In this document: piece by piece, positions 10,516 through 64,000 of the stretch
How positions within the stretch are numbered: position 1 is the stretch's first letter
Layout: each line of letters opens with the position of its first letter
Origin: Sarea resinae
Lineage: Eukaryota
Direction of reading: 5' to 3'
DNA: 64,000 bases
NCBI GenBank assembly: GCA_026026165.1
Contig: JAPEUD010000039.1
Location: 1-64,000, forward strand
Translations under genes and position numbers: made by a program
The notes under the pieces: generated by a model
What the model was told of the DNA's origin: nothing
Database searches by the model: none
Seen by the model: only the letters and a program-made list of their open reading frames with translations

Positions 10516-10558
10516 AGATCTCCGCCTCCTCTTTTCTCTTCTGCAGTTGCTTGCAGCG

Positions 10559-16200: not shown

Positions 16201-16418
16201 AGTTGCATACTAGTCTAGGAAGCTTACTAATACTGAATTAAGATATAAAGTGCATGACTTAGAGTTGCTAGCTATTGTAATAGCTTTTAAGCAATAGCGC
16301 TACTACTTAGAAGAGGCTAATTACTCTATTAAGGTCTTAACTAACTATACAAATCTACGCTACTTTATAGCAACAAAGGAGTTAACCTGTCGCTAGGCTA
16401 GATAGGCTAAACAGCTAG

Positions 16419-16808
16419 TGTAAGGGATCAAACTAGATCGCACTAGATAAGTGCTAGATAGTCCTAAAGATGCAGGAACCGCTGAATTGTAATGGCGCTG
16501 CTATGCTTAATAGTTGTCGAGTGTGTCACTGTCTTAGGTCTCGCTGCTAATATGTCTTAGAGAACTCAAATAGGCAGCAGAACAAGCGTATCGATTAATA
16601 TAAGCTATCGGCCTGTAGCCTAGTAACTGAGTAATAAGAAGAAGAGAAGAAAACTGACGCGCTAACTGCTTGCTTAACTAAATGCTAGAAAACTAATAGC
16701 TGAATGCGTGTATAAAGAACTAATGATGCTCTCTTTCTAAACCCCTAAGGAACACAACCCCACCACTAATACCTGATGACTAAGCTGTTGCCGGTTTACC
16801 CTATCATA
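16419..16808 (-). repeat. 3' LTR of inner Gypsy element
   Basis: TGTAAGGGATC...CCCTATCA(T)A; direct repeat of 27948-28337. Confidence 0.95.
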
Positions 16809-27947: not shown

Positions 27948-28337
27948 TATAAGGGATCAAACTGGATCGCACTAGATAAGTGCTAGACAGTCCTGAAGAT
28001 GCAGGAACCGCCGAATCGTAATGGCGCTGCTATGCTTAATAGTCGTCGAGTGTGTCACTGTCTCAGGTCTCGCTGCTAATATGTCTTAGAGAACTCAAAT
28101 AGGCAGCAGAACAAGCGTATCGATTAATATAAGCTATTAGCCTGTAGCCTAGTAACTGAGTAACAAGAAGAAGAGAAGAAAACTGACGCGCTAACTGCTT
28201 GCTTAACTGAATGCCAGAAAACTAATAGCTGAATGCGTGTATAAAGAACTAATAATGCCCTCTTTCTAAACCCCTAAGGAACACAACCCTACCACTAATA
28301 CCTGATGACTAAGCTGTTGCCGGTTTACCCTATCACA
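27948..28337 (-). repeat. 5' LTR of inner Gypsy element
   Basis: Direct repeat of 16419-16808, with a PBS-like sequence immediately internal. Confidence 0.95.
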
Positions 28338-29177
28338 CTAGTAGCGTATGATTTTAAACTTGTATATAGAGCAGAGAAAGCTAATCTAGCTAATAGGCTG
28401 TTACAGCACTCTAATTACAAGGTAAAGACATAGAGTCTAGAAGTGATACTTCTTACTCTGCAGCAGAAGCTGCAGAACCTATGTATATTAAAGAGAGACA
28501 GCACTATACTAGTGATCTAAAACCTTCTTACTAGAACAGATAATAAGCATCTAGGCAAAATAGGCGCTAATACGCTAAAGGATAATGTGTATCTATAAGA
28601 GATTAAAAACCTCTCTAGGTTAAGGGATAACACTCTACCTACTATTAATAAGCGATAGCAGCGCACTAGGATAACACCTAGTTTAAGCGCAAAGGATAAT
28701 GTGTATCTATAAAGGATTAAAACCCCTTCTAGGTTATAGGATAACACCTAGCCTAATATTAAAGAGCGATAAAGAGGCACTAGAGTGATACCTAGGCCTA
28801 GCCTAAATAACAATGCTAATAAGCTAGCATTAGGAGATAAGTTTAAACACCTCTATATAAGATAAGCAGTGTATAAGGCAGCTGCTAATAAAAGAGCGTA
28901 CAAGCTGCTAACAAGCTAGCTGCTTAACATTATCCTTAGGACTTAGTAGGAAGATTATTTCGCTAAGGAAAAGATTAGAAGCATTCTTACTAAGGAGGTT
29001 ACAGGCTAAGAAAAGTGGAAAATAGACTCTATAGGCCTGCTGCGCCTAGAAGGCAAAGCATATATGCTGTGTGATACAGCTATTAGGTTAGAAATCATAA
29101 GAATAAACTATAATAACCTGTTTAGTAGCCACTTTAGCGCTAAGAGAACAACAGAGGTGAGCTAGTGTAAATACTAG

Positions 29178-29567
29178 TGTGATAGGGTAAACCGGCAACA
29201 GCTTAGTCATCAGGTATTAGTGGTAGGGTTGTGTTCCTTAGGGGTTTAGAAAGAGAGCATTATTAGTTCTTTATGCACGCATTCAGCTATTAGTTTTCTG
29301 GCATTTAGTTAAGCAAGCAGTTAGCGCGTCAGTTTTCTTCTCTTCTTCTTGTTACTCAGTTACTAGGCTACAGGCTGATAGCTTATATTAATCGATACGC
29401 TTGTTCTGCTGCCTATTTAAGTTCTCTAAGACATATTAGCAGCGAGACCTAAGACAGTGACACACTCGACAACCATTGAGCATAGCAGCGCTATTACAAT
29501 TCGGCGGTTTCTGCATCTTTAGGACTGTCTAGCACTTATCTAGTGCGATCCAGTTTGATCCCTCACA
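29178..29567 (+). repeat. Solo LTR of the inner-element family, in opposite orientation
   Basis: TGTGATAGGG...GATCCCTCACA is the reverse complement of 27948-28337 (390 bp); CTAG TSD at 29174-29177 and 29568-29571; interrupts the outer integrase zinc-binding region (KY[W][W]TNLAKDV...C..[C]). Confidence 0.95.
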
Positions 29568-31299
29568 CTAGTAGACTAATTTAGCTAAGGATGTTAAAGA
29601 ATATATTAATAAGTGCGATATATATTAAAGGGTCTAGGTGCCTAGGCATTGCCTATACAGCAAGCTACAGTCGTTACCTATGCCCTACTAGCTGTTTAAA
29701 GAAATCACTATAGATTTTGTTATAGGCCTGCTGCTAAGCAACATAAGAGATTGCAAGGCCTATGACATAATAATAGTAGTAGTTAACTGCTATACAAAGA
29801 TAGCGAAATATATTCTATGCTAGACAAATCTAAATGCCGCTATACTTACAGACATATTTATCAACGTTATAACAACAACGTATAGCAATCTAAAGCGCAT
29901 TGTATTAGATAGAGGCAGTGTATTTGCAAGCAAGTTTTAGTTAGCGATATGCTATTAAATGCGAATTAAGAACTAGCTTAGCACTGCCTTCTACCTGCAG
30001 ACAGATAGCTAGACTAAGAGGCAAAACTAGACGTTAGAACACTACTTGTAGTGCTATATAAGCAGCTGCTAGGACGACTAGGCTCTGCTATTACCTATAG
30101 CTAAGTATGCATACAATAATAGCATATATTTGTCTATAGGAATGTCACTCTTCTATACCCTATATAGCTATAACCTAGATCTGCAACTTAATATCGCAGA
30201 CAATGCTATAGAGAGAGAGGTGCTAGCAGCAAACAAGCGCCTTAACATCCTCTAAAGGGTAAGACAAAGACTAGAAGAGGATCTTACTAAGGCATAGCAG
30301 TACTAAGCTAAGTGGTATAATAGGAAACATAAGCTAATGCAATATAAAAAGAGCGATAAGGTTATGCTGTTAGCGCGCAACCTTAGCACTATACGCCTAA
30401 GCAAGAAGTTAGAACACTGCTATATAGGCCTATTTATAGTACTTAACTCTATAGGCAAGCAAGCCTACTAGTTATAGCTCTCTAAGGCTTATAGATCTAT
30501 CTACTCTATATTTTATATATCGCTGCTTAAGCGCTACTACAGCGACAGCAATACCTTAGACTAGCACTTTAAGCTAGTTAATAGCTAGGTTAAGTAGATT
30601 GTTAAGAAAATCCTAGGCTGCAGAGTACTTAAGAGAGAGCGACAATATCTAGTTAAGTAGAAAGGAGCTCTAGTAGATAACACTAGCTAGGAGCTAGCAG
30701 AGCACCTAGCAAACGCTATAGACCTAGTATAGGATTATAAACAGCACTTACTCTCTAACTAGCATAAGGGCCTAGCGAACAAGGAATAGGATGCTAGTGT
30801 GCTATTAACTAAGCCTTGTAGTCAACTAAAGAAGTAACTGCTTAGTAATAGCGCTGTAGAGGCAACAGCTAAGAGGCTAAAGAGCTGCCTAAGGAAGAAT
30901 CTACTACTCTATAAGGACTCTCTAGCTAGCCTAGAGATGCTAGTAACAAAACGCCTACAAGGAAGGCTATAGAAGTATAGCCTAAAGCTGTAAGTAATTG
31001 TAGGAAAGAGACCTTACAGCTGTCCTAGAAAGGACGCGCTGTTATAGCACTAGTAAAGAGCTGCTATTAGAACTCTTTCTACCTCTTTTACCTACAAAGG
31101 TTTTTAGGTGGTTTTAGCAAGCTAATGTAGGGGTAGGCCTACAATGTAATTGCGTGCTAACAGCGTACAGTCTCTGTAGAAGGCTATTAGGCTATAGGGC
31201 TACAATGCTACAGTTATAAGAGGAGATAAAGTTATAAAAAAGAAAGTGAAATTAAACCTCTAGCGCTGTCCTAGCGCGAACCTAAAGCTATCTAGTATA

Positions 31300-31990: not shown

Positions 31991-32394
31991 GTAGAACAAT
32001 AAGAGCGCGATTAGAAACGTTTATAATAGGCAGATAAGTATATAGAACGTACCTAAAAACGTAGTGCAAAAAGTTTAATTGTGCGCGCACGCACTAGATC
32101 ACCTACGTTTTATACCTACACACCTATAGCTAAGCAACCTCTAAGCGATAGAGAGAATGCCTAATGCAGACAGTTTAAAGCATTTACTCTATCTATTTAC
32201 TGCTGCTACTCTAGCGCAGCGTTTAGCAAACTAAGTAAATAAGATAAAGAACTCTCTTTATTATCTACACAAATTCACTAGTTGCAGCGAATAGCAACGC
32301 TACTAAGGCGCTAGCAAGATAAAGACTTAACACTATAATATTATACATTGTAAACAAAGGACTTAGAGGACTAGGTCCTAGGAGAGAAAGTAAT

Positions 32395-32703
32395 TGTAAG
32401 GGCTACTACTAATAGAGGTGCTGTATAGGGTTTAGCGCAGCGCAGGGTAACTACCTAGTGTAGTTTAGCAACGTTTAGGTAAGCTAAGCAAGGTTATTAG
32501 TTATATAGATTAATAGAGGCGCTAGCTATTAGGGCTAGCGTTTAGTGCAATTACAAAGTTAGTGCCTACTAGCAATATCTATATCTATAGTATTAGTTCT
32601 GCATCGCTAGGGTGACGCTAGCACGCTGCAGTGCACTAGCCTATTTAATCGTGCTATTCCTACCTACTCTACTATAGCTAGAAGTCTAAGAGGTAGTCTA
32701 ACA
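32395..32703 (+). repeat. 3' LTR of outer Gypsy element
   Basis: Direct repeat of 12991-13299, preceded by a polypurine tract. Confidence 0.95.
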
Positions 32704-33519
32704 ATATTAGCTTCTAAATATACTCTAATATTCTAGGGTGCACTTATAAAGAATTACTATAGATAAAGTCTTCTTTTTAACGTAGAAAGCTAGGAGGAAT
32801 ATGTATAGTCACTTCTCTAGCTAGAAAAGAAGAATATAGACTAGAAGAAATAAGCTATAATTTAGCAACAACGCTCTAGTATGCCTAGGACTAAAGAATA
32901 CTAAGTTCTTTAAGATATTAACAAGAATGTTTAAACCTATAAACTAAGTATAGCGATAAGGCATAGATCTGTGTCGAGTTGCCTATAGTAGTTTAGTAAG
33001 GAGGCAATTCTTCCTGAGCGGCGCGAGTAAACAATGTCGTACAATAGTATGTGTAACAAAGAAGTCGAACCTTGTATGTACTCGAGTATGTACTCGTACT
33101 TTAGTAGAGATTATGTGGGGAAAGGGCACGCTACGAGGCAAGATCTACCTCGCTAGCGTACGCAGCTAAAATCAACGTCTGACCTGTCCCGTCAGCAAGT
33201 AGCCTAAAAGAAGAAGCCAGAGCAGAGTCAAAGATGGGTAATGAAAGAGAGGGAGGGAGAGCTAGGCTATGACTTGGTCAATGAAGCTCAATTGATTGCT
33301 ATCTGCGATTTTAATGCCAGAGAAAGATCAAAGCATGCGATCAAAGTAGAGCCATCCAGCGCGTGAAGAAGAAAAGCCGCCTCTATCAGACACGGGCAGG
33401 AAAGAGAATGTATCCGACAAGATCAGAGCCCTTGGACCAGGCCGACTGCCATGCTACCCTACTCTTCGAACCTAGAGGCGTATGTCAGTGCTACTCTCGT
33501 GTAGTGTTGGCCGATGAGC

Positions 33520-34160
33520 CTACCTTCTCTTCTTGTTCGGCGGCTTGCGCCGCGAACCTTGGTTCAAAGAGCCAGCGGGAGAGCGTTCGCCGGCCGCGGC
33601 GTCTCTGGCCCGCTGCTCGGCTTCCTCTCGGGCTCGCCGCTCTTCTGCCCTCTCCTCTCTCTTCGCCGCTCGGACCTCGCCTTTCCTCTTGTATTTGGTG
33701 ACGTTCTTCCGGCGGCGGCGAGCGGTCTCGAAAGCGGTCTTCTGTGCCACGTGTTCCTCTCGTGGCACTAAGTTGTCGCGGGCACGCTCTATCAAGTCGA
33801 AGTTAGCATCAGCACGATCATTAGAGGACATCAGAACTAACTTCTCTTGCTCCCACGAGCAGACGGTCCTCCAGTCGTGCCAGTCGCCATCTTTGACTCT
33901 TGAGAGTGGCGAAAGGCTGCGGCAGACTGATCTTCCGTATCTCGTCTGCCTTCGTGCTCGCGGATTCCTTCAGGCTCGTCCCAGAAATCGTCTTCCTCGT
34001 CCTCATCGCCCTTCATCAGCATGCTCTCATCTGAGTCCGGGGACTCTAGATAGTGCCCTGAGGAATAGCGGCTTTTGCGCCCATCCTCCTCCGGATCATC
34101 TCCTCCACCAAGTCCGCCCCTGGTGATTCCGGCCCGTTGATCTACTAGGTAGGTCGTCAT
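33520..34160 (-). pseudogene. Orphan charged protein (acidic N-part, Arg/Glu coiled-coil, C-terminal KPPNKKRR NLS-like), split by a frameshift
   Basis: ORFs 33837-34211 and 33520-33831; a diverged partial homologue at 9301-9450 keeps the same reading frame over most of its length. Confidence 0.45.
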
Positions 34161-34210
34161 GGTTGATGTTGTCGAGGGTGCCTTATCCCGTGGTGGAGAG
34201 GGCGAGTCCA

Positions 34211-34630
34211 ATTACTACAAGTCGCTGAAAGCAACTGTAGAAAGAATGGGTAGTGAGGCCGAAGGCGAGGGGTGATGATAAAGATCCGATTACTACAAAT
34301 CGCGAAAAGCAATTGCAGAAGAACGGGAGGATAGTGGTAATGATGATGACGATGAAGTTTCAATTACTACAAGTCGCCGAAGCAACTGTAGAAAGAACGG
34401 GTGGTGAGACCGAAGGCGAGGGGTGATGATGAGGGTTCGATCACTACATATCGCTGAAAGCAATTGTAGAAGAACAGGAAAATGACGTTGACGATGACGA
34501 TGACGATGGTGATGGTGATGGTTCAATTACTACAAGTCGCCGAAGCAATTGTAGAAAGAACGGGAGGATGATGATGATGCCGATGACGATGAAGGTTCGA
34601 TCACTACAAGTCGCCAAGGCAACTGTAGAA
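34211..34630 (-). repeat. Tandem array of six stem-loop repeats, period 74-86 bp
   Basis: Units start at 34211, 34289, 34363, 34440, 34526 and 34600 (+ strand core ATTACTACAAGTCGCCGAAGCAACTGTAGAA); linkers are GAT/GAC-rich and of two related types. Confidence 0.9.
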
Positions 34631-34834
34631 GAGATAGAGCGGTATGAAATGAGGCTTTCGATATCTATTCCGAGTTGCTCCAAGTCTGAAAGACAAACGA
34701 AGCAGAAAATCGGATGGAGACAGGTTGAAGTGGAAAGGAACTGGATTGTGTGTGGACGAACTGGAAGCATGAAGTGTGATGGGAACTAGGGATCGAGCCC
34801 TAAGGTAAGCCACCGAAGCCTTGGAGATCCTGAC

Positions 34835-35018
34835 TGAGACGTTCAACGAAAAGTGACCATGTCAGGTTATTCTCAGTTTCGTTCAGATTTCGTCGAACGT
34901 CTCACGATCGCAAGCGTTTTACCGTCACTGAGGACCCAGCTGTGGGGATGAGACGTTCGACGATATAAGTCCAGAACTCCCTCTGTTGTTTCGATGCACT
35001 TTATCGTCGAACGTCTCA
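34835..35018. repeat. Two 70-bp units, each bounded by 17-bp inverted repeats (TGAGACGTTCRACGA...)
   Basis: 34835-34851 pairs with 34888-34904 (one G.T-type mismatch); 34949-34965 pairs with 35002-35018 (perfect). Both enclose 36-bp spacers with little similarity to each other. Confidence 0.9.
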
Positions 35019-35344: not shown

Positions 35345-35906
35345 TTGCTTTTGAAAGTAGCTGCTGATTTCACATCTATGACCGCGCACTAATTGATCAT
35401 TAGAAGAGTGAATTTCGTTGGTTGATAGGAGACCAATGAGAAGAAGCTCACAGCCCTGGCTTCATCCTCAGCTTGTCTATCATCACCGTTCCTATCTTCG
35501 CCTCATCCAAATTCTCCACGCCACGTATCATGGCTGAAGCCTTCCAGGTTAGCTGTCATCACTCTTGACTGGCTACGTCACCTCACCTTGTTCATCATCG
35601 ATCTCATCTTGACTTCAAGCATCAATCAGACTGACCATCAATCATTGGATCGAACCATTGCGGAAACTTCCACCTGCCCTGCCACGCGGTCTCGTTGGCG
35701 AGCAATAGACCCATTAAGATTGAGTCCCGCCTTCCCGATCAGAAGCATCACCACTCATCCATTCCGTCAGTGCTGCGAAACTAGACTTTACAGTACAGCC
35801 TCTTTGATCTGTTGCCAGCGGCCGACTCTGGTCAGAGCCGACTCATGCAGTCCTCTGACATCATCTTGCAACTGTGCAGAGGCCAGCAGCGACCAGACCT
35901 TAGACA

Positions 35907-37507
35907 TTGGGACACTACATCCTCTCTGCCCGCGAGAAGCACCCGGGCGAGAAAATCATTGTCTGCGCACCCTCGAATCAAGCGTCGGATGCAATCCTTG
36001 CCAGCACAGACGAGCCGGAGGTGTTCAAAAAGAACGGGGGTAGGCTTTCCTACATACTAGGTCAAATGCCAGGGAGCTTTGGTAAAGCGCTTGATTTTCG
36101 AGGGATAATCAACTCAAAACCGGGATTCTCGCTCAGAGTCGAGTTGTTTCTGCACGGGCACATCGGTTGAATGGCTCAAGGAGAGTTTGAAAGCAATCAA
36201 AAAGGCAAGTAAATTCCTAACAATAACCATCTCCAACTAATGATTTTCTGGATAATGTTAGCTATTGTCGCGCTTCGTCGGGTCGCTGCAGGAGTTCACC
36301 ACAATACGCCTACTACGATCAAACTCCTGGTACTGAATGCAATTACAAATCTGACACGAGCAAACCTTGGTCCAACCAATGGCCAGTCTGGAAAGAGTCC
36401 GCCTACAGACCGGCCAGGCCTTGCTCGATCCAGCGGCTAAAAGTTCAGTGACTTTCATATCAATGCAGCAATTATCTGAATCGGGGAGGAAACAAGGCAG
36501 TTTTTGAGGCCATGACGGACTTGACTAATTTGATGCCATTTGTCGCTCCTTGCATCAAGTGGCAAGAAGGTTCCTCATGACTCGCGCAATGGTGGTGACT
36601 TTTGGTGTGTCGCCTTCCAACATCGGTGCACTAAGGCTTCGGATAATGCCGCCATCAACGAAGGTAAGGTAAGATTGCTAAAGACTCTCGCTAGTGTATA
36701 AAAATGATTCATTTCTCGATTGCTGCTGACAAGTTGCAGATGCCTACCTGTGGCTAAGAAGTGGCCCCACTAGGAACCCCGCCCCACGTCATAAAGAGCT
36801 CGAGGGCGCCCCCGCATCATCAAGAACTCAAAAGACAGGCCCGGCAGGAACAACCATGCGGATAAGGTCGTAGGCTGAGATCTCGCGACCGGCTATCAAC
36901 GCTTCGGCGGATTGTGGGAGGAAGGCTCATACAATTAGGATCACATGCATCAATATCGACCAACCATATCCGCCTAGCAGGCGGAGAATGACAGTCCACC
37001 ACGACCGTACACTAGACCGATATATCTTAGCATCGATCTCTGTCCGCTAACACGGTGTCATTCGTCCTTTTCGGACACCCAACTAAAATGACAACTCATG
37101 CTCGCCATATCACGAAATATCTCTCCACCTAGGATAGGATGAAGTAAGTCGAGGGAAGAGGTATAATTTCTTCCATTGGCTAATGTTGTTTGCGGATGAA
37201 GGCATCATCAAGATCTCCTCCGAGCCTTTCTGTGTCGGCAGTCATCATCCAAGTCGAACAGTATCTTTGGACGCCGACGAGAACAAGATCTATGGAACTG
37301 GTCCTCGACGGTCTTGATACTACACAATGCTACATCAATCCCCAGCCTACGACATCAGCAGTTTCGTGGTCTAGCTTGTTTCATTCGGCTCGTTGCTGCA
37401 TTGCCGAGTCCTCCGCGCATCTCACAAGAGACTTGGGTCCCGCAACACCGCTCGTGAATTTGCCGCTGATCTAGGCGCTTTACCCTACGGGCGACCCGTA
37501 CCAGAAC
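35907..37507 (+). pseudogene. Scattered fragments of a second copy of the SF1 helicase gene
   Basis: 35907-36045 LGHYILSAREKHPGEKIIVCAPSNQASDAILAS matches 39504-39640; 36547-36635 SLHQVARRFLMTRAMVV matches 39656-39745; 37448-37507 PLVNLPLI*ALYPTGDPYQN matches 40011-40074. Order is collinear, with unrelated DNA in between. Confidence 0.75.
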
Positions 37508-38569
37508 ATGCCTATGCTCTCTCTCCCTTGGACCATCTGAACATAGCAGAGCAGCAAGACATTATCAGCCTCGATTGGCAAGAGGCACTGAGCTCAAAGG
37601 AAATCTCAGAAAGAATCCAGCGAGCCTCGTTTGATTTGGACCAAAACGGAAGATCATTACCCGGCTGCCGAAAAGCCTGGAAACAGAGCGTGGCGGATCT
37701 GATGATGGACCGAGGGATCCCTCACGTCCATCCTAAATGTGCAGTACCGATGCTATGCTAGAGCAGCCAGACTAAACACCGCAAAACACGACAAGCCATA
37801 AGGGATTGTTGAGGTTTACACATTCCGGATCTTCGACCGCAAACACCCTAGGGTGGGCCTCGCATTCATTTCAAATGAACCTGCAATACAACGACGTTCA
37901 TTCAATCTGTTGCCACTGCGTTTGACCGTTTTTGATTGCCCACTACCCCAACCATTCACCATACCCATTCATATGTCCCATTCTCCTTTCAGCCATACAT
38001 CTATTTCATTCATCGTATTAGTCACGTCAGCAATCCGTACATCTCCCACTTCAAATATAAAAGGGCTCCCATGGTTGTCTATTCTTTTCCTTTTCCTTTT
38101 CCTTTCTGTACTCCTTCCTGCGGACATTTTAATTTCCACATCAACGCAATCTAGCATGCCATTAACTCATTAAAACCACCTTCTAGGTCTATACCTTAAA
38201 CCATATTCGAACATGGGTCTCATTCTAGTTGGAGATGAGACACAGCTCGTTCCGACAGTCATGTCTGGCCAGTGATTTAACCAATACAATGAAAATGCTT
38301 CGACTTTGGTAAAATCGCTGTTCTCACGACTTCGGGCCGAGAGGTTTCCCACGATTGAATTTCGCAATCTGCGTCAGCTATTGGCTTTCGGGCCTCCAAC
38401 TCTAGATTTGTGCTGCTTGTTAATCTTCAAGCCTTATATATGTGTATCAACGCATACGCCGCCCGTCAGATATTCATTTTTTATCAAAGTTTCCAAAAGA
38501 CGCCCGGAAAGAGAGTATAATGGGCCAAATACTGACTTAGGGAACCTGCACGTCGAACTCAACTTGCAG

Positions 38570-41100
38570 TGCCTTGCCATGCGGGATCGAGAGGCATCCG
38601 AGGCTCCCCCGCCACTGCTTTCCCTTTGGCGACGATGTTCGGCAAGATGCTGAAAATCCGACTTGCCGACATGGATGCAAAGTTGATCCCGCTCGCTCGA
38701 TTTCAGGCCTTGGCGTCGGTAGTCGTTACCGAAGAGTAGAAGATGGCCCGGTACATCACCAGGATTATCAACGCCATCGATGCCGAGTCTGCTGCTCAAG
38801 AAAAGGCGCTAAACGGGGAGAACCGAGATGGCTGCGAGGCTAGGTTCTCTCTGTGGAATGACTGCCTGATCGTGGCACTCGACCCGCCCCCGGGTAGAAT
38901 GACCCCCGATTGGTCCTTCCGGTCTGGACAGCGGCTGGAGTTTGCTGAGCGCGAGCCTGATGCTACCCAGTCCGAGCCCTCCACAGATAAGGGCAAGGGA
39001 AAGGAAGTGGCCGCCGCTGATCCGGAGCTGCTAGAGCGCGTCGAGATCCGTGTCAAGGATTCCATGCCAGTGCCCGGCACCCTCACGGCCGTAGTGGAGA
39101 GTTCTATCGACGCAAAGGTCCGGGAAAGACTCCTGGCAGCGGACGCTTTGCCAATGCGCGTCCAAGTGAAGATCATCTACGAGGATCCCACTGCGGACCG
39201 TAGCTCCGCTGCCTTAAGAAGCTGGCGGAGATCTGGGGTCTCCGACCAGTTTAGGAGCCTGCCGAGAGGCCGAGAGTCCTGCTCGACCTCAAGAGCATTC
39301 TCTTGCCCCATGCCCCTTTCGATCCAAGCCCGAAGCCTCTGGATTATAAAAAGGGCACGGGCACCATAGGGGCGGCAGATATTCCCAACCTCGCCTCGTG
39401 GGGTCTGAATGCCGCCCAGACCGCGGCAATCGTGAGCGGCCAGGCTCCTCCAGGAGGAGTGACCATCGTCCAGGGCCCGCCGGGGACGGGGAAGTCCAAG
39501 AAATTGGGCCACTACATCCTCTCCCTCCGCCAGAAGCACCAAAGCCATAAGATCATTGTCTGTGCCTCCACCAATCAAGCGCTGGATGCAATCCTTGCCA
39601 GCGCAGAGGCGGTGTTCAAAGCGGCCGGGACGGGCTTCCCTGCATGCCGGGTCACCTCCTTGCACCAAGTGGCAAGGAGGTACCTCATGACTCGGGCGAT
39701 GGTGGTGAGTCCGGACGTGTCGTCGTACGACATTGATGCGCTGAGGCGCGACAAAGCCGAGCGTGGCAACTGGGCGCTGTACAAGGAGGGGTTGCGTCAG
39801 CTCGAGGAATTGGGCTACATCAAAGACCCGAACGCTGCCGATGGCTACAGGAAAGAGGCGAGTGCTCTGGCCAAGAAGATCCTTGAGGAGACCGGCATGT
39901 TCTTTGCCACTTGTGGCATGTCCGGCGTCAAGAGCATCCAGTGGCACTACAAGGCCGAAGTTCTCGTGATTGACGAGGCCGGGTTCATCAGAGACCCGGA
40001 CGTCGTCATGCCGCTAGCGGGTGAACATGCCGCTAGTCCAGGCGCTTTATCTCACGGGCGACCCGTACCAAAACGGGCCCGTGCTCCTCACCGCAGCTGC
40101 CGAAGCGGCCTGGAGGCAGCCCATAATGGGCCGCTTGATGGAAAAGCGTCCCGCACCTCCTCTCGACGTGCAGTACCGATGCCACGCAGGCATCGGTGCC
40201 GCAACGAGTCAGGCGTTCTACTAATGGCGCTTTAGTCACGGTCCACCCATCATTATTTACTGGGAGCTTTAATCTTTTCTAACACTAACAAATATTGATA
40301 GAGTCTGTATATCTAATTCAAACAGAATCACTTGGAAAATAGAGGAGGAAAGAGCAGATAAGCTAAAATCTCCTTACTCTCCTGCTCTTTACAACATCAA
40401 TACCGGACAAAATTGTCTAGAACTATTAACTAGAACTATTAACCAAAGCTTCTTTACTATATAGGGCTCTATACTACTTCACGTTAAAGGGCATTACAGA
40501 CTATATGTTAACATATATCTTATAAAGGAGAGTGTAATCTCAATGAATTTAAAGGAAAATACAAAATTTACTATGCGAAAACCTTATAGACTTAAACACT
40601 GGACGGCTTTACATCTAGTGGTTTACATTCTTTAAAATATCGTATAAGACAAAATATACGGTCAGAGCAAGACCGTCAAAAGCACATCGAACGCTTTGGA
40701 GGCGCTGGCGGTCACTCGGTTGGTGGAGGCGGTCCACGCAATGGGGTTTGACTACAACGACATTCTAGTCATAGCCCCATTCAAGGCACAGGTTGCAGAG
40801 CTCTCAAGGGTGGCAGCTGTGACCGGGTGGACCGCCCCCATCAAAACGATCGACAAGGCGCAGGGCGCTGAAGCAGAAGTTGTCATCTTCTGCTTCACCC
40901 GGACCGCAGGCAACTTGGGCTTTCTTCGGCGCGAAAAGCGGATTAACATGGCTACCTCGACAGCTCGAGAAGTATTTTTCATAGTCGGCAACTACGACTA
41001 TATTCAAGAGACCGCGGGCCATCCATTCCGACAGTATCTCAGTGCTCTTAAACCTAATAGGACCACGATCCGCGGAAATCTTGGATGGAAACTCGCTTGA
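38570..41100 (+). pseudogene. Upf1/DNA2/NAM7-like superfamily 1B helicase pseudogene (intronless)
   Basis: Walker A QGPPGTGKS, motif Ia VCASTNQALD, ATC, Walker B LVIDEAG, GDPYQNGP, LDVQYRCH, IAPFKAQV, TIDKAQGAEAEVVIF, RINMATSTAR. Frameshifts at ~39214 and 40017-40020, stops at ~39252 and 40222, AT-rich insertion at ~40250-40658. Confidence 0.88.
40250..40658. mobile_element. AT-rich, TpA-rich insertion (probable RIP-degraded repeat fragment) inside the helicase
   Basis: Abrupt drop in GC between helicase motifs QYRCH and IAPF; includes a tandem CTAGAACTATTAA duplication at ~40417-40442. Confidence 0.55.
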
Positions 41101-50646: not shown

Positions 50647-51823
50647 GATGCTGTTGGTATATATAAAGCGAAAAGGATGAGAGGAAAGATATAGCAGCCG
50701 CCGGGTTCACTTCAGACTGTGGCAATGAGAGAAGGGGCAGCTCGAGATATATATACAATGTCTCGAGAATACTTTCTATACGTCAAGGGAACTTTTACCC
50801 TTCGATAAGGATAGTGCCGAATTAGGGTGGAGTAGAGAGAGAGCCGATCCAGGCACCCAAAGCGACGAATGAGCAGAGGAGCTTATCAGAATGGGAAACG
50901 GTGGGCGAAGATCGATCAATCCCTCGAGGATTCGCCGTGTATATCATGTATGGCTGACCTGACGAAAAGGAACCCTGACGGACTTCCATTGCCCTGATTA
51001 CAGTGGATGTCGCTTCGATTCTGCGCGATAGGCGATGCGACCGGAAAGGAAACGGTACAGGCTCACAGACAGGTCCTTAATGCAGAGGAAGTTGGGTGGG
51101 GGGAGGAGGGGTAGGACTCGAGCGATAGAGGGTTGAGGACTCACAAACTCTCTACGTAGTAGTGAGAGATCCGACATGGAACAACCTTCTATGTAAGGAC
51201 CCCTCCAGCAGCCGCCTGGCCTGGGGTAACAGAGGTCTTCTTCGCCTCTTCCGGTTTAGCGCCTGGGTCCCACGTACTCTTTCCCGATGCGGTAAACAGT
51301 TCCTCCGGTACCTCTCCGATGTACTGGCTCTGCACTGCAGAATCATGCAGCATTCAGACCTTTGTCTCCATCGCCTTTCTCGCCACGGCACGTACGATTT
51401 CTTTTGATAATTTAAAGTCTTTTAGAATCTGTTTGCGAATGCTCTATGTTCAAGTGCCATGCATGTACTCTACCCTACCTGTAACCGTTGACCCTTGGGC
51501 CTACAATCCTGATCCCAATACCTTTCCTATCCACAGTCCGTCATAATCGTCGTGTACCGAAGAGTTGCCAATGTGCTCGAGCGCGCGACCGTCGTGTTCC
51601 CCACAGTCCAGAACACGGCAAAGGAAAATACAACGAATATGATACAAACCACGGTAGCCCTGAGAAGAGAGATTAAAGGAAAGAACGCCTGGAGACCACG
51701 GAGATTCGTTTCATAAATGGAAGAGGGCCTGTCGCCTAGAAGATTCTATTGAAAATCTGCGTATTCGAATGGCAAGCAAGTATCGCTTTTTGTTTCACCA
51801 GTCTGATGTGGCCCAAAGGAAAA

Positions 51824-53426
51824 TCACTCGGGATCATGATCCGGATTCGCGAGCTTTTGCTCATGTTAGCTGTGGTACATCATGAGCGCATATTGAAGCT
51901 TACCCGCAGCACGCGTCTAGAGTAATCTTGATCATCCCTCAGGCTTCTAACGCTGACTCTGCTCGAGTTCTCGTGGTAACGCCAGAACGTCGTAGGATCC
52001 AATCGTTGGTCGACAATGTGTGGAACTTTGCCGTCCGGGCTATGGTCGGGACTATGGCGAGTCACACCTGGACCGAAAGAACTAGTATGGATCGGAGGAG
52101 GGGCCTTTCCAAACCCGCTCAAGAGCCCCGAATCACTCATAGCTCGACTTGGCCTTCTCGAATTGTCGTCCAGGGTCGTCGAGTCTCCAGCCAACATTTC
52201 TGGGTCCTGGTGTCGCCGGCGCCAATAACTGTAGATGACGCTACCGACGATGAGGATGATGATGAGGGCGATGCCGGTGAAAAGGCCCGCTACTTTGCCA
52301 GTATGCGAGAAAAAGCCTCCATCACTCTTTCGCTCAGCATCCGCGGCGGCCGGAGGTTGCGTGGGTGTGATCGTGACGGTTTTGACCTGGCCAGTGACCG
52401 TCATGACCGTCGTCACCGGTGTTGCAGACCATGTTGACGACTTTGAGGAAGTGGACGACGAAGACGACGCTGGAGTGGTCGGCGCAGGTGTTGAACTTGG
52501 CGTCGTCGATGAGGGTGTTGATGAAGGTGTCGATGAAGGCGTCGACGAAGGTGTTGACGAGGCCGAAGAAGACGTGGATGGTGGAGATGATGTAGTTGAA
52601 GAGGTAGAAGTGGTAGACTAATGCAGCGTTAGCAATGATATCTATGAAAATGCCACCGTCACACATCCTCCAGAGAACTTTCTCCATAAGAGATGGGAGG
52701 GGCAGAACCCGTACAGGAGTCAGAATAGAAACAAGCACCGAAGGCGACGCTGTGACCGTCTGTACGATGGTCTCAGGGCTCGGGCTGGGTGAAGAGGTTG
52801 ACTTGGGAGTACTCTGTATGGAAGGCGTCAAAATTGATGTCCAATCAGACGTAGATGAGCTGTCTAGGAAGTGAAGATGCAAGAGAACGCAGATCGAGTA
52901 GAGATATGGGTACTAACCGCCTGACTTGAGCTAGACTGCACAATGCTCGAGGAAGTACTGCTTTGAGCGGCGCTGCTGGATGCACCCGCGGTACCGGAAG
53001 GACTCTTGCTCAGCGCGATATATCCGAAGAGGCTCGAAGACGTAGAACCACATTTGTCCGATGGATAGCCTGGGCAGTTCTGATCACAATCTCCGGTCGA
53101 AGTGGTTCCGGCTGGGATGTAGTTTGAGCACCAACATGAACTGCCTTGCAAGACTGCAAATGCCCAATTGGCCTTGCAGTTGTCGAAACATGCACCATTA
53201 GACTGCCAGATGCTATTGACTAGAAAATGTCAGCATACAAAAGCGTCAACGCAGAAAGTAACATACATTCCGAGTTGCCAGATCCCGTATTTTCGCTGGA
53301 GCAGTACTCGATATTGAGCGCGGCAACGCGATTCCCGGTGAGAAACAGTATAAGAAATAGTAGAATCGTAGGGTAAGCTTTGACTTGGAGTACCCTAGGC
53401 CCCATGTTTGTCCTAGAGGACCTCAT
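51824..53426 (-). CDS. WSC-domain cell-wall stress sensor (Wsc1/Slg1-like)
   Basis: Signal peptide, WSC Cys pattern (YCSS..., QGSSCWCSNYIP...C...CPGYPSDKCG), Ser/Thr tract, TM helix, cytoplasmic DQRLDP and SLRDDQDYSRRVLR.ANPD tail. Confidence 0.9.
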
Positions 53427-56400
53427 TTAGAGAGTAAACAGTGATGATCTATGGAGAATGGCTCGGCTATCGGGTGATGAAGATCAAGTTTAACTATCGC
53501 GTCGCATATTAGCCATGCCTGGTCAATTGAAGCTAGAGAGCGGGCCAACGCGCGATCAACTCACGTAGAACAGACGAACTCGAAAGAATCGGGAAGCAGA
53601 TTGAGTGCTGACCGTCGCTCGCTTGCCGTACAGTCGGGCCGATGAAGAGCAATCGAGAAGAGGTTTGTTGCAAGTAGCAAGCCGAAGACCAATTCCTCGT
53701 AAGCGGTTGAGGCAGAGTGGAAGCGCGACCTGCCGATTGAGGTATGGAAATGAGGGTGATGATGAGGTTGATATTCGAGGTTTCCCGACACGTACTCCAG
53801 GACGTGTTCGCTGCGTCGTCGATTCGCTATCTGGTCACGTCCTGACTATGTCCAAACGTCCTCTGCCTTCTCGTCCGGGCTCTCTCTTCCTCCATCCAGG
53901 GCCTAAAGGGCCCCAACCACGTTACGGCCCGTCTGATGATTCCCGATTCACGATAATTAAGACACCTCCCCTGACACGCGTTCAGACGTCAACGAACGAT
54001 GACCATCGTCACCTCGTCATGTGCTGAGCGTCGAGAAGACAGCACCAAAGAATGAGTTACCAGAACGAAGGAAGATGTAGAAAGGTAGGTCGGTAGGTGG
54101 AGATGGACGTGAACGAGCAAGGGACAGTAATAGAGTAGTGTGGTGAAGTAGTACAGTAGAGTTGGCAGGTTTACACTAGAGCAGGAGGAGGTGTGTGTAT
54201 ACTAGGTATGTAGAGGAGACTTTCGAATAGCAGTGGAGAAGGAGGGCGACGCAGGTAGAGTTTCATGGTTCAGGTTAGAGGAAGGGACTACGGGAAGAGT
54301 AGTGGCAGCGGGTGTGATTGTTAGTGGTTGAGGGACTTGGAAGGGGAAGGGGAATTGGGAATTGGGGTGCTTCGAAGTACTTCGTACTGCAGACATAGGG
54401 GACCAGATTGCCGGCCTAAATTAGACAGGTGGCCGAAAGGAGTAAGGTACCCCGAGCGACAAACAGCCTACGAGACCTCATCTGCAACTACCGGAGATAG
54501 TGGCGTCCCGACCGGAGCTCGTCGACCACGCTGGAGGCGGTGACGGCGACTGCTCATGATGGCCTCTCTAGAGTCGAATAGAGTATGCCTCTATGCCTCT
54601 CCGAGGAGCCATCTCAGCAATTCTGAAGAAAGTCCAAATCTCAAGGCAGAGCGACAGACGGAAAGTGGCAAGACGGCCCAGCACAAAGTCACAGTCATCA
54701 TGCCTGTAAGACTTCCTGAACCGGGCCACTTCCACGGATCCAACCCTGCAGGCGGCGGCCGATCGCCTGTGATTGTGTTGCTTCGGAATGCACAGTGCAA
54801 TCAAGAATCACCGGCATGTACAAAGTACGAGGTACTTCAGTCGTTCATGTACGAGGACGAGGTGCGAAGAAGCAATTTCTGCCAAGTACTTCGTAGTATG
54901 TAATAGGAGCGGAACCAGGCGGATCAGAACCTGGTGGTAATTTGACAGCACTTCCATGTCTGGCATCGTAGATTTGCGCGATCCTATCTGTCCGAGGCCC
55001 AGTGCACTTTCTTCCCGATCGCTGACGGAGAAACCAGAGGATGCATTTCATTATTTAATGCATCACACCACTCTGATGCATCAAAAGGCAATGTCTCACC
55101 GCGACGTCAAGGGGAAGCTTGGGAGAGGCGGCAGCGCCTACCGCTCAGCAGTGATGCCGCCGACTGGATTCCGGATCGACGTGATTTCGGCTACATGCTC
55201 TGGCTTTGTTAGGTCCACAACCGAAGACTGAAGACCACAACAATGGACACGACTACTATGTACTCCGGCGTAATCGTCTGGCCTTCTTCTCGTTCCTGAG
55301 CGACCGCCAGAACGCGAAGAAAGGGTATCCAGAGCCCAAAGACGACAACGACGACAAAGACGACGATGGTTGTGGACGCAGGCACGGTTTCAGCGCTCCA
55401 TCCATGTCCATCTCGTTGACTATTCTTGGAAGTCGGTGGCTGTGTCGTAGCCATCTCAATGGATGGCTGGCTGCTTACTTCCCAAAGCGGATTGCCTAGT
55501 CGTGTCATTTGAAGACGGCGTGAGCTTGTCAGCTCGAAGGGCCAGTCAGGGCCGGCCAGTGGTCGAGTTGCGGATGCTGAGGTCGAAGGCGCTCGCTTCG
55601 ATGTACTTCAGCAGGTACCTTAAGCGCCGACCTGTGATTAGATGACCGAGCTCGGTGTGGATTAGTCATGAGTGATCGTCAGGAGAAATCTGTCGGTCAT
55701 CAGGACGCGAGAGATGACCAGAGATCCGATGGTTGATTGGCGAATCTGGGTGGTCAACAGCCATCTGCAAAAGAGCAGGTGGCCGAATGGCGAAATGAGC
55801 AGCCCTGAGACGAGATGAGTTCCCACATGGTATCTGCCCGGACACCTCTGACCGCCACCGCCGTCATCGATCTCCGTGGTCAGGCCTCACTGTGTTCGTC
55901 GGCTCGTTTCACTTCTGCACCAATGCAAACCCCTTCAAGCGGCTGATCATCATGCCGACCGTTTCATCCCGCCTTTGTTGTGAGACTCTTTACCTGAGGT
56001 TTGTCGTCGTCCAGTGTTGTCGCTGTTCAGTCATTGTCGTTGGCAACTCATTCTTCAGAACGTCTCAGACGTCTTTAGACAAAGGTTGTATCACTTGTTC
56101 AGGTCCAGCACGTGGCGACTGGCCTCTGGATATCGACATGAGCGGACCCATCTTTTAAAAAATACACATTCGCCAAGTCTCTGTTCAAAGCAAGCTGCTT
56201 TGGCAGAAAGTTGCTGCTCTTGCCTTTCATCATCACAACCCTGATCAGCCCTCATGAATAGATTGTCAACGGGTCGTCTCAAATTCCATCTCTGCTAACT
56301 GGTGACGATCATGGTTCACCACCTTTTCGACTACCGTACTACTAGATTGCACCAACTGGGCGGACATCGCTTTCCCGTCTACAGTGCCAGCAGTGCTCTT

Positions 56401-59625: not shown

Positions 59626-60249
59626 GGCGCCGGTCTGGCTGTTCTTGGTCGTCCTTTCCCTTTGATATCAGGGTTTCGCTCGATCTAGTTGGGGCCGAGA
59701 CTTGCTCGTACGGCCGCTAGCGGTCTGTTGGAAAGTGGACACACGCTTCAATTGATGATGGGACGTTGTGGGGACGATGAATTTACGTTGATGCTGGCGC
59801 TTAGCGATGGCGAAGGCGGTTGATGGTGTTATAGTGCTGGCAATGTTGGTGGCGGTGATGATGATGATGATGATGATGGAGATGGTGATGGGGGGCGATG
59901 GTAACGAAGAGCCGCGGCCGGGTTGCAGCGGGCGGTTACCTTATCGGTCGAGGCTTCCTACGACCAATCACAGGCTAGGCGTTGTCGTGTTACGCGCTCC
60001 TCTGTGCCTACCTAATCCTGCCTCAGGTAGGTACACAATACTTCGTACCTCACCTTACCATGGATATGTCGGACAACGAGCCAAGAGGGTAGCGCGCACC
60101 ATTGAGGACTTGCTTGTAATTCGTCTACATATTATTCTATCCGACACCAGAACACAAAATGTCGGTCGGCATCAGCGTCAAGGCCGAACTTGCGTTACTC
60201 ACCTTAGCAGACCGCGTTTGCATCTTCTAACATCTAATAATTTACGCCT

Positions 60250-61774
60250 TCAGCAGAGGTACCCTGCTGGAAACATCTCAATATGAATCTTGCCCCGAAC
60301 CAAATTACTCAAACGCTCGACAACTTCGGCGTCCACAAAGGCCCACTGTGTAGCTTTCCTACCATCAATGTTCAGAACGTCGCCCTCGGTGATCTTCTCC
60401 GGGAGTTCCTCTTTGTTGATTCTCGGGATCGCTGTCGGTTCACGCGCACAGATATGGCCTTCGACGAGTTGCGACTGTCCGGCTTTCCAAGACTTATTAA
60501 ACTTTGCTGGTGGATCCCCTACAGAATTTCCCTTGCGACAATACCAAACATACTCCTTCCAATCTGGTGAGTACCATAGCTGCTGCTTGCGGATGGAGTC
60601 AACAAATGTTTTCGGGACTTGAATCTGAATGATCCAGGTCTCAGCCCAATTGCACCTAAGTTGACCCCATTTTCGGTATTCCTCTGCAGTTGCCTCCTCC
60701 AGTGTCCAATACCACGCGGAGTTTAGGTGATTAAAGTCGCCTCCCTCTCTGATCTGAACTGAGCGCAAGTTGACGCTTCCATCATCCCTGATAAACAGCA
60801 ACCCCCCATACAAGTCTCCCCAAGCTTTGCCTTTGTATAGGATGTAGTGGTCCGGCAGAGCTAAAGGCGCCGCCTGGACAGTGACATGGGCGCTTGGTAG
60901 ATTATTGTCCTCCGAGGCGATATTCGAAGAAACAGTAAAGGTTGGTGGCTCCTGCGTGGATGAAGATGCACCTGACTCGAAGACACCGGCTACCTTCAGT
61001 CATTTATTCTCTTTTCTCTTGGCGATGGTCTGAATTGCATGAGACTTGAGACGCTCTAGGAGCTTGTTGAGGGTGGAGTATCTGATGCTCATGGTATCCT
61101 TGAGCCAGTAGTGCAATGTTTGGGATCGAAAAATCTGGGAGAAGTGCGGGTCTGTGAGAGCCGCCTGCAATTCATCGGATATCTCCAGCCCTGTCATAGC
61201 TTGTGTGGCTGGAAGATCTTTCAATGGCTGGAAAAACAACCTCCCAAGATACGAAAGTGCGTATCTAGAAGTTCTGAGAGTTAGCTACTGCGCTATCGAG
61301 TAATACCAACAGAGTAGCTTCAATGTCATGTGCATTCATCTCAAGAAAGTGCATACGCATTGAGAGTTACTTACTGGATGAGGTCATCGGGATTTCGTTC
61401 GGGGTCGGGTCTGCCTGTCCATCTTTTGAAGATATCCTCGGCTACTTTTCGAGTATATCCAAGGAATTCGAGGCAGGCAACACTCTCGGTGTCTTCGGGA
61501 AGGTCAAATGGTGCCTTGGTCGAAGGGTCAAAGGGTCGAATGCGAATAGACGTAGACGAATTGGAGCTTGAAGAGCTTGAACTCCTGTGGCTGGAAGGCG
61601 GACCTAGAGATCATAGTCAGCTGTCTTGGGCAAAATTAGTGGGTGATAGGCGTGGGTACTCAGGAGCGCAGCGCTGACTTTGCGTTTTCCATTCGTCGGA
61701 CCGCTCAAGAAGACCTATTCTTCCTCGAGTACTCGAGACTCTTCAGGATCAAGCGCAAAAGGTGAGGTTGCCAT
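60250..61774 (-). pseudogene. DUF3990-like (ADP-ribosyltransferase-fold) protein gene with in-frame stop(s)
   Basis: Exons LPEDTESVACLEFLG...NPDDLI | YALSY...; TGA at 61000-61002 is in frame with downstream LYKG...GGDFN..AWYWT..EATA..Y...WKEYVWYCR...VEGHIC...QWAF. The start is approximate. Confidence 0.55.
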
Positions 61775-62020
61775 GATGAGGTGAGAATGAAGGTGATGGA
61801 TGTGGTTATAGTGTAGGTATTGAGTGTGTGTGCGATGATTTGCTGACTAGGTAGGCAGCTGAGTGGCTGCTTTGAAATGAGAGCATTCAACTTTAAGGTA
61901 GGTAGGTATCCATCAAGGTAGGTGACCACAAACGCAGAGAGAGAGGAGAAGATAACCAGAAGGCGAAGAGAAAGTCGGAGAATGAGGAGGTGTCTGAGGT
62001 GATGAGAAAAGAAGAGGTCG

Positions 62021-62435
62021 ATTGCTACAAGCCACCAAGGCAGCGGTAGAATGAATGACGAAGAATGAGGCGTCCGGGGTGACGAGAAAAGACGTGTTCG
62101 ATTACTACACGCCACCAAGGCAGCGGTAGAACAAACGAGGAAGAATGAGGCGTCCGACAAGACGAGAAAAGACGTGTTCAATTGCAACACACTACTAGAG
62201 CAGCGGTTGAACGAACAACGATGACGAAGGCGATGCTTGAGTGGTCGGCACAGGTGTTGAACTCGGCGTCGTCGATGACGGTGTTGATGAATGTGTTGAT
62301 GAAGGGGTTGAAGAGACGGAAGAAGACGTGGATGGTGGAGACGAATTGGTAGAAGTGGTAGAAGTGGTAGAAAGAAGGAGCGTCCGACCAGACGAGAAAG
62401 AAGATTCCATTGCTACACGCCACTAGAGCAGGTAT
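62021..62435 (-). repeat. Tandem array of four (last partial) stem-loop repeats, 80-bp period, with a captured WSC-gene fragment
   Basis: Units start at 62021, 62101, 62181 and 62409 (+ strand core ATTRCTACAMGCCACCAAGGCAGCGGTAGAA); 62220-62371 is a copy of 52454-52617. Confidence 0.88.
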
Positions 62436-62756
62436 GACTCAACTACCGCCAGTCATCACGGCTTGATTGCGCCTGCCGAGATAATTCACACCGTGAATGG
62501 GTCAACGACCTTGTTGGTTAGATCACCTGGGCAAATACGTGCCGGTTGTGACGTTGCTCATCTTTCGTCCTGCCTCACTACTCTCACCGCCTTGGATCGG
62601 GCTAGATTAGCCGCGTACTTCGTACTTCGTACCTGCCTCGTTTGAGCATGATTGCATCACGATGCACACTGCCTTATCAAACCCTACATCTTGATCTGGC
62701 TATTGCACGGCCGTACCGTAGACAACAGTCGAACGAGGACTTCCGGTCAGACCAGC

Positions 62757-64000
62757 ATGGCGTCTCTCAATGTCTACATCACGACCTTCAACTGTGCGCG
62801 CGAGCCGCTGCGATGCGAAGACTTTGCCTCGCATCTATTCGATGCCTTGCCATCCGAGGACATCGATGCGTTACCGGACTTGCTGGTGTTGTCGCTTCAA
62901 GAGCTGGCACCCATCGCACAGTCGTTTCTCGGAGGCTCGTTCTTGACATGGTATCTGGAGAGATTTCGTTACGCTGTTGAGCTGGCCACATCTCGCTTTG
63001 GAGGAAAGAGCACGAGGTATAGTAATGTTGTCACGAGAAATGTTGGCATGACAGCCATAATGGTCTTTGCCAAAGAAGAAAAGGCCAAAGCTATCCGGTG
63101 GGTTGAGACGGCTGGCGTTGGGGTCGGCGCATGGGGGATGGGCAACAAGGGTGCGGTAGGGGTGAGGCTGGGCTACGATGCTGCTGCACGCGGGGCGAAT
63201 GCGGAGTCCGAGAGAGAAGTCATGGAGATGACTTTCGTCGCGGCGCATCTAGCTCCAATGGAAGATCAAACGGACAGGAGGAATGAAGACTGGAAGAATA
63301 TCGTCCGAGGCTTGGTATTCACACCAGTGGACAGATCGACGATATCTCCAAGAAGAGTCGGAAATGCGACAGAGGAGGAACGGCCATTGTTGTACGACGC
63401 GATCGAAAATGAAACTAGGCGGTACTCCGGGCTTTATGGCTCAACATCTCATGTCTTCCTAGCCGGCGATCTCAACTACCGCACCCAAAATCGAAAGCCT
63501 GGCCCACAAGATCACCACGCCTATCCCCAGCCGGCAGAATACAATGATGACTCTAGGCATTACTCCTACCTTTTCAAGGACGATCAACTATCGCGCGAAC
63601 TGAAAGCTCAGAAGACATGCCACGGTTTTACCGAAGCTCCCGTTGACTTTCCCCCAACCTACAAATACTCGAACAAGCAGTCCGAGTTCCGCATAGATGG
63701 AGAACCCCAGAAGTGGCAGTGGGCGAAACACCGCTGGCCCAGCTGGTGCGATCGGATTCTTTTCCTTGTTCCACCGCCTGCAGGAGGAGATATTCAAACA
63801 CACCAATACACGGCTTTACCCCTGATGCCTACGTCAGACCATCGTCCTGTTGCAATCTCACTCTCCTTGCCGCTGAAGCCTATCAAGCGCTCGGATCTCA
63901 CCTCGGACGACCCACGAGCACAGTCACCGTTCTCCATAGATCCTAACTGGAAGGAGAGGAGGGAATGGGCGAGGAGGCGAGAGATTGTTGTGGGAGCATT
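62757..64000 (+). CDS. Inositol polyphosphate 5-phosphatase (Inp54-like), runs off the window
   Basis: Open frame from ATG 62757: YITTFNC, SLQE, GNKGAVGVRL, FVAAHLAP, FLAGDLNYR, FPPTYKY, PSWCDRIL, SDHRPV. Confidence 0.92.
   Translation, partial: MASLNVYITTFNCAREPLRCEDFASHLFDALPSEDIDALPDLLVLSLQELAPIAQSFLGGSFLTWYLERFRYAVELATSRFGGKSTRYSNVVTRNVGMTAIMVFAKEEKAKAIRWVETAGVGVGAWGMGNKGAVGVRLGYDAAARGANAESEREVMEMTFVAAHLAPMEDQTDRRNEDWKNIVRGLVFTPVDRSTISPRRVGNATEEERPLLYDAIENETRRYSGLYGSTSHVFLAGDLNYRTQNRKPGPQDHHAYPQPAEYNDDSRHYSYLFKDDQLSRELKAQKTCHGFTEAPVDFPPTYKYSNKQSEFRIDGEPQKWQWAKHRWPSWCDRILFLVPPPAGGDIQTHQYTALPLMPTSDHRPVAISLSLPLKPIKRSDLTSDDPRAQSPFSIDPNWKERREWARRREIVVGA

Follow-up and report, generated by a model that had tools for sequence, protein, structure and literature searches.

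How does a piece of a cell wall sensor gene come to lie between two hairpins of a nearby tandem array, and why does one of its ends fall exactly on a splice site? These questions are raised by a 64-kb window of a Sarea resinae contig, i.e., the whole stretch of 64,000 nucleotides analyzed here, for which all coordinates are given as forward-strand positions. In a sequence-only reading of this DNA, the segment 62220-62371 had been described as a fragment of a WSC gene captured inside a stem-loop array, and either a spacer-like acquisition of host sequence, possibly from an RNA template, or a microhomology-driven event had been proposed, with a potential role of the captured piece in regulating the WSC gene or in forming a chimeric exon.

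The WSC exon fragment in array 1

By local alignment, 62220-62371 matches 52454-52617 on the same strand, with 133-134 of the 152 aligned bases being alike and one 12-nt repeat unit gone from the copy, and a blastn search with 61850-62500 against the whole window retrieves this match at an E-value of 2.3e-42 (81.1% in 164 columns, 12 of which are gaps). Global alignment of copy and donor results in 152 aligned columns with 18 differences (88% identity), the 12 absent bases being located in a 12-bp repeat tract for which TRF reports 4.2-4.7 copies in the WSC gene versus 3.2 in the copy. Hence, the match initially claimed is real in position, strand and extent, including the missing 12-bp unit. 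The copy represents a fragment of the Ser/Thr-rich WSC exon with the sense on the minus strand and is found in direct orientation at a distance of 9766 bp from the donor; a divergence of about 12% suggests that it is old. A RIP-like mutation of the copy was considered as well, but discarded in view of 9 transitions versus 9 transversions.

The caveat that the insert might be an assembly artefact, already raised in the sequence-only reading, does not hold. In the Logan assembly of run X1, a possible source sample and accordingly to be taken as a second assembly of perhaps the same reads and not as second data, record 6 (3956 nt, depth 334) covers 61498-63999 and crosses the insert with 0 differences and 0 gaps, and record 1 (depth 354), the WSC contig, covers 51500-56237. 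As the longest exact run common to copy and donor is 23 nt and thus shorter than the k of 31 used by the assembler, as the two copies differ at 18 sites, and as an independent contig passes the insert without a gap, misassembly is excluded; in particular, an assembly chimera would not bear 18 substitutions. Moreover, surplus X1 depth is not seen over the insert and the sole extra sequence is a 47-nt piece of a third locus on 52445-52491, leaving the WSC gene as the only candidate donor seen. The third locus is represented by one more X1 contig, in which about 47 nt match the WSC Ser/Thr exon and the sequence on either side does not; the match reaches across the left end of the duplicated segment. 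From runs X2 and X3, only low-complexity pieces of 33-53 nt with less than 90% likeness were obtained, i.e., no comparable relative. An X2 joint 52618>62347 (depth 4.9, side 26, 37 foreign letters), considered as a deletion allele, was rejected as a low-complexity artefact from another organism.

The donor is an intact gene for a WSC-domain cell wall sensor on the minus strand (51898-53405), as deduced from PF01822, homologues and the tblastn extent. Its layout comprises a signal peptide, the WSC domain (52918-53217 on the minus strand; Pfam E-value of 1.4e-9, 38.5 bits versus a cut-off of 27.8), a Ser/Thr region, a transmembrane helix and a tail, with the frame-2 translation reading STTSTSS...GLFTGIALIIILIVGSVIYSYW...tail, that is, a Ser/Thr stalk followed by a hydrophobic helix (the latter recognized by eye). 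Homologues bear names such as cell wall integrity and stress response component or are designated Wsc1/Wsc4-like, and the best relatives are from lichen-forming and allied ascomycetes, showing about 50% identity for the exon and 73-75% for the domain; the WSC protein of the window itself is absent from both homologue lists (exon and WSC domain). Reading frames, splice motif, a homologue HSP and the extent of a purine-rich block identify the donor segment 52454-52617 as the beginning of the Ser/Thr-rich exon (164 nt). On the coding strand, TGCTAAC...CATTAG directly precedes TCTACC at 52617, making this position the first exon base, and since the AG sits in an in-frame TAG, the Ser/Thr frame cannot open farther upstream. 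The 3' splice site is the same whether one 300-nt intron or two introns are assumed. When aligning eight homologues over the splice site by tblastn, HSPs start at 52617 (n = 1) and 52611 (n = 1) or read through (n = 3), the latter because exons 2 and 4 are in the same frame, which is compatible with this site, though not decisive. The coincidence of one copy end with the WSC 3' splice site, as claimed before, is thus confirmed, as the copy begins at the first exon base.

The recipient, array 1 (61970-62445, minus strand), ends 195 nt from the start codon at 61774. As established by core spacing, TRF and a covariance model, units 1-3 (61970-62219, with three 80-nt units at 61980-62219) have an 80-bp period and one hairpin core each (62012-62057, 62092-62137 and 62172-62217), and unit 4 (62372-62445) consists of the resuming linker and a degenerate hairpin at 62400-62445 (39.2 bits, E-value of 9e-9). 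The 27-nt core copies start at 62017, 62097, 62177 and 62405, i.e., at spacings of 80, 80 and 228 nt. Beyond the insert, the linker motif is back at 62380-62399 (95% identical to 62150-62169), the larger segment 62369-62431 is 82% identical to 62138-62203, and the 28 nt past the exon boundary are array linker, in full agreement with the previously described position inside the linker of the third unit and the resumption of the array thereafter. Removing the insert (228-152) leaves a 76-nt period and places it in the linker between hairpins 3 and 4. As the period is broken by the insert and close to normal without it, the array is the recipient and older than the insert.

In the direction of the hairpin sense strand, array 1 is followed by a minus-strand gene (60250-61774) starting with MATSPFALDPEES at 61774. 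Over 98% of the corresponding protein query, there is 100% identity to the database protein P0027, which is assigned to a Sarea resinae MAG and also begins with MATSPFALDPEES; hence, the start at 61774 matches the public annotation. The two neighbours of array 1 encode an Exo_endo_phos2 phosphatase and an uncharacterised protein. Besides, a 7.6-kb X1 contig matches 60596-60716, 60998-61084 and 61340-61441 in three exon-like pieces with 14-21 differences each, so that a diverged paralogue of the 60250-61774 gene exists elsewhere in the genome.

The hairpin family at three loci

Array 1 is not the only site of its kind. Array 2 (34202-34640, minus strand) is composed of six hairpins with spacings of 78, 74, 77, 86 and 74 nt, and a minus-strand ATG follows about 40 nt downstream, at 34160. 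Locus 3 (10477-10572, plus strand) is oriented the other way round and comprises a complete and a partial hairpin, with a plus-strand ATG 30 nt further on at 10602. The units of both arrays and locus 3 are homologous over their entire length. The hairpin is strand-specific: on one strand, the core folds into a stem of 10 bp that has a bulged U and is closed by a loop of UUCG (array 2, locus 3) or CUUG (array 1), with compensatory changes from one locus to another. In the alignment of the 12 units, 91.3% of cells pair, compared with 34-50% when the partner is slid. Covariation reaches 0.301 versus 0.239 ± 0.020 in shuffles (equalled in 0 of 500) and three pairs change on both sides, values which derive from three loci with few independent compensatory events. 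For the opposite strand, 74.7% of cells pair, wobble cells amount to 31 versus 6 between the two strands, and 11 of the 12 units fold better in the sense direction; a transcription-linked C-to-T bias without selection could also account for the wobble asymmetry. At all three loci, the sense strand of the hairpin is the coding strand of the adjacent gene. Judged from this arrangement, the units are probably leader or upstream elements.

Assignment to an established family was attempted by several routes. At gathering scores, Rfam does not give a match for the arrays, the only hit in the window being a dispersed 5S rRNA gene at 8787-8906 on the minus strand (RF00001, 80.7 bits). With loose thresholds, Rfam yields merely C/D-box look-alikes below the gathering score, and a C/D-box snoRNA cluster was rejected, as the best score is 23.1 bits versus a gathering score of 40 and is on the plus, i.e., the wrong, strand; by eye, CTGA is found in two of the six array-2 loops and in none of array 1. 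Searching the whole window with the covariance model R1 and filters off returned only its 12 founding units, with the next best hit at an E-value of 0.28. In metagenome scans for the hairpin pattern, the tight version had 0 matches and the loose version two, both of which are chance hits (10.7 and 10.3 bits with R1, no arrays). Terminal inverted repeats do not flank any of the three loci, the only inverted pairs found in this search being an unrelated palindrome at 62697-62724 and a motif set at 34835-35018. Situated just past array 2 in a divergent intergenic region, the latter comprises a 17-22-nt motif (TGAGACGTTCGACGA...) in four copies, which form two inverted pairs, and may represent a promoter element. 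Likewise, a description of the hairpin family was not found in the literature searched on the Sarea resinae genome or on lichen-fungal MITEs, tandem repeats and promoters.

If the arrays acquired host sequences in a spacer-like manner, further inserts should be expected in their linkers. "Capture", however, is restricted to one of the nine inter-hairpin linkers in the window (array 1, n = 3; array 2, n = 5; locus 3, n = 1). The other spacings vary between 56 and 86 nt, with length differences solely due to GAT/GAC triplet runs. Accordingly, spacer-like acquisition is not corroborated, and the evidence from the window leans toward the one-off duplication that the sequence-only reading had itself named as a refutation. 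A far more speculative view, to which we give little credence, is that the arrays are lineage-specific structured 5'-leader RNA modules that have spread before unrelated genes and, being fragile, repeatedly take up exon fragments and thereby give rise to new upstream ORFs or chimeric leaders; if true, new leader-encoded peptides would generally arise in this way in this fungal lineage, with the WSC piece as the first example to come to light. In any case, the array context, with three loci of the same family within 64 kb, may matter more than the duplication.

The window harbors further repeats. The segments 27943-28343 and 29172-29572 are 400-nt inverted repeats, 96% alike, around a segment of about 1.6 kb which contains a 114-bp tandem repeat (28577-28783), and a third copy is present at 16415-16806, an arrangement suggestive of a transposon bounded by long terminal inverted repeats (27943-29572) and an additional solo end. 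A direct duplication of 315 nt with 96% identity (12987-13301 and 32391-32705) spans a distance of 19 kb. Smaller duplications with 75-85% identity connect 9290-9445 with 33657-33822 (inverted), 9188-9291 with 39440-39543 and 35902-37519 with 39499-40086; included here is a piece of the gene situated downstream of array 2, found some 1 kb away from hairpin locus 3.

Junctions, origin and fate of the copy

At the left junction, the copy reads GATGACGAAG, the linker between units 1 and 2 ATGACGAAG and the WSC donor GACGACGAAG. As 7-9 nt are common to all three, the junction lies somewhere inside this overlap, and the first 10 nt or so of the copy (62220-62229, GATGACGAAG) can equally be assigned to the array linker; this is a putative microhomology in purine-rich DNA. 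At the right junction, donor-derived ...GTGGTAGA is followed by the mid-linker sequence AAGAAGGAGCGTCC, in place of the usual linker GAAGAATGAGGCGTCC, with microhomology of at most 1-3 nt, and exact placement is precluded by the last 30 nt being slipped 9-mer repeats. A GAAG-type linker motif, A(C/A)GAAG, is found on both sides of the insert. Of the microhomology-driven event proposed earlier, the general idea survives with A(T/C)GACGAAG at the left junction, but the suggested GGTAGAA of the repeat core is not found at the junction and is not the microhomology, as the insert is followed by mid-linker and not by post-core sequence. In base composition, the copied piece corresponds to a purine-rich block of the exon (0.68 on the plus strand) bordered by a left flank of 0.52 and an intron of 0.54, and the array also has a value of 0.68. 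Both copy ends are therefore compositional boundaries, which plainly explains the exon-boundary end without invoking RNA and is a caution against RNA-mediated or adaptive readings of such coincidences.

With a probability of roughly 0.6, the junctions and composition point to a single, old, DNA-templated copy-and-paste event, presumably by repair or template switch. A break or stalled fork would have occurred between hairpins 3 and 4, in a linker rich in purines, the hairpin-forming array likely being a fragile site, which would link the hairpins to the insertion. A 3' end finishing with ...ATGACGAAG could then have annealed to ACGACGAAG, a near-identical sequence located 9.8 kb off on the same strand in the WSC gene. 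Synthesis would have proceeded over about 150-165 nt and stopped where the purine-rich block finishes at the exon boundary. The new end would then have been joined to the array again almost or entirely without homology, so that A(C/A)GAAG now stands on both sides, with the donor remaining intact. Subsequently, the copy would have drifted to its current divergence without having a function of its own. At least five other small dispersed duplications are present in the window, so small ectopic copies are not unusual here. On the other hand, the right junction offers little microhomology, the codon pattern of the copy would also fit weak purifying selection (see below), and the base-exact coincidence with the splice site is somewhat improbable for a DNA-templated event, amounting to a few percent even within the purine-rich block by a rough estimate.

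An unlikely alternative at the DNA level is homeologous gene conversion, in which a GAN-triplet tract already present in the linker between units 3 and 4 would have been converted by the purine-rich antisense strand of the WSC Ser/Thr exon, again with a non-functional product, but requiring homeology at both ends instead of a break plus microhomology. The linkers of array 2 indeed hold GAT/GAC expansions of up to about 47 nt, and the tract ends fall on both ends of the purine-rich block. In addition, the array-2 linker 34564-34593 resembles the transmembrane-coding WSC part 52252-52281 (86.7% of 30 nt). However, this likeness is microsatellite-like, as 34564-34593 also matches 59856-59891 and 11106-11134. 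Moreover, the linkers of array 1 units 1-3 are without triplet expansion, and the near-normal period obtained by removing the insert leaves little earlier tract to account for.

Whether the copy has been put to use is a separate issue. The open frame stated in the sequence-only reading (62195-62410) extends over the insert in the Ser/Thr frame; it lies on the minus strand and has 71 codons. From the ORF list, simulations and the lack of a matching Pfam family, this frame is judged fortuitous. Its ATG at 62410 lies in unit 4 and is owed to a base peculiar to this unit, and in simulations starting from the donor, the frame survives 9 random changes in 63% and 18 changes in 42% of cases, so that a kept frame carries no weight. 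The comparison of the two copies recommended along with the earlier claims assigns the 18 differences to codon positions 1, 2 and 3 in numbers of 2, 4 and 12, with 17 codons differing (11 synonymous, 6 non-synonymous). This third-position excess has a P of 0.004 if both copies are neutral and of 0.12 if WSC is constrained and the copy is drifting; it fits a constrained donor and a neutral copy, as weak purifying selection on the copy would do, too. Nothing in these data requires a function, nor is neutrality proven by them.

Considering this, exaptation of the insert as a 71-codon uORF or chimeric exon in the leader of the 60250-61774 gene, or as a regulator of WSC, is improbable. The open frame with its ATG, the third-position excess and the array pointing to the annotated start only 195 nt off would suit such a role, as would the otherwise scarce sense-strand ATGs in the putative leaders (5 seen versus 12.6 expected over the three loci). 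Yet, the frame is expected by chance, its ATG hinges on a single base, the ORF is without family and donor constraint suffices for the codon pattern. A regulation of the WSC gene, as envisaged earlier, is unlikely in particular, because the insert, if transcribed with the hairpins, would be sense to WSC and could not pair with the WSC mRNA. The opposite strand bears 20 ATGs and would thus be a poor leader for the phosphatase gene.

About as improbable is an RNA-templated capture, that is, patching of the break by a WSC cDNA or RNA fragment beginning with the first Ser/Thr exon base. Its appeal is that the copy starts with base 1 of the exon, directly behind the 3' splice site, a coincidence which the compositional boundary explains. 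Under either exon model, upstream-exon sequence does not adjoin the copy, array linker being found there instead. The other copy end is mid-exon, about 550 nt before the stop, and without an A-run, the sense strand past this end reading GTTGTTCGTTC. Splicing does not normally yield a free RNA that begins with a 3' exon. With neither an upstream exon nor poly(A) and with the other end being mid-exon, the RNA template suggested in the sequence-only reading is unsupported. Finally, that the insert is what remains of a decayed WSC paralogue, with the tandem array growing around it later, is very improbable, as, despite gene-fragment relics elsewhere in the window (e.g., 9290-9445 versus 33657-33822), the array units are in register on both sides, homology ends sharply at both ends without trace of WSC domain, transmembrane region or intron, and further WSC-like sequence is not present beside the array in the window.

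Comparison with known systems

At first sight, an array of hairpin-forming repeats and linkers, one of which holds sequence from elsewhere, is reminiscent of CRISPR. In contrast to the latter, the array is eukaryotic, its linkers are homologous and not unique, only one of nine has an insert, this insert is 152 nt long and 12% diverged from a host gene, and acquisition machinery is not evident beside array 1, as judged from the two neighbouring genes. With processed retrocopies, the insert shares a copy end at an exon boundary, but it lacks an exon-exon junction, poly(A) and a clear target-site duplication of the retroposon type and represents part of a single exon. A dispersed family with tandem units near genes, one copy of which carries a host fragment, also resembles gene capture by transposons such as Pack-MULEs and Helitrons, a comparison covering the inverted repeats. 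MITEs that contain tandem repeats have also been reported (e.g., PMC3879986). The three loci studied here differ from MITEs and other transposons by the absence of terminal inverted repeats and by element ends not being defined.

In position, the arrays are like the tandem repeats of fungal promoters and leaders, with start codons following at a distance of 30-195 nt. In structure, the 10-bp stems on the sense strand of the gene are like hairpins capped by UUCG or CUUG tetraloops, which are known to be stable. Among the classes compared, the hairpin family could not be placed in any; if the units are transcribed leader elements, they would constitute an undescribed class of fungal cis-RNA or a mobile minisatellite.

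The insert is probably a further instance of a known event type, the templated insertion. Replication template switches of this kind are named FoSTeS/MMBIR. Like filler insertions formed by MMEJ or SDSA, it is a short stretch from elsewhere with an intact donor and putative junction microhomology, with the recipient here being a structure-prone repeat. The duplication itself matters little; its value is that of a clean, natural gene-fragment insertion into such a repeat with readable junctions. In Magnaporthe oryzae, Cas12a-induced breaks were repaired with genomic DNA from elsewhere, even coding DNA, at microhomologies of 2-3 bp (PMC9684475). Compared to the events described therein, the Sarea resinae insertion is presumably ancient, natural and intrachromosomal, bridging 9.8 kb in direct orientation with a long putative left microhomology of 7-9 nt.
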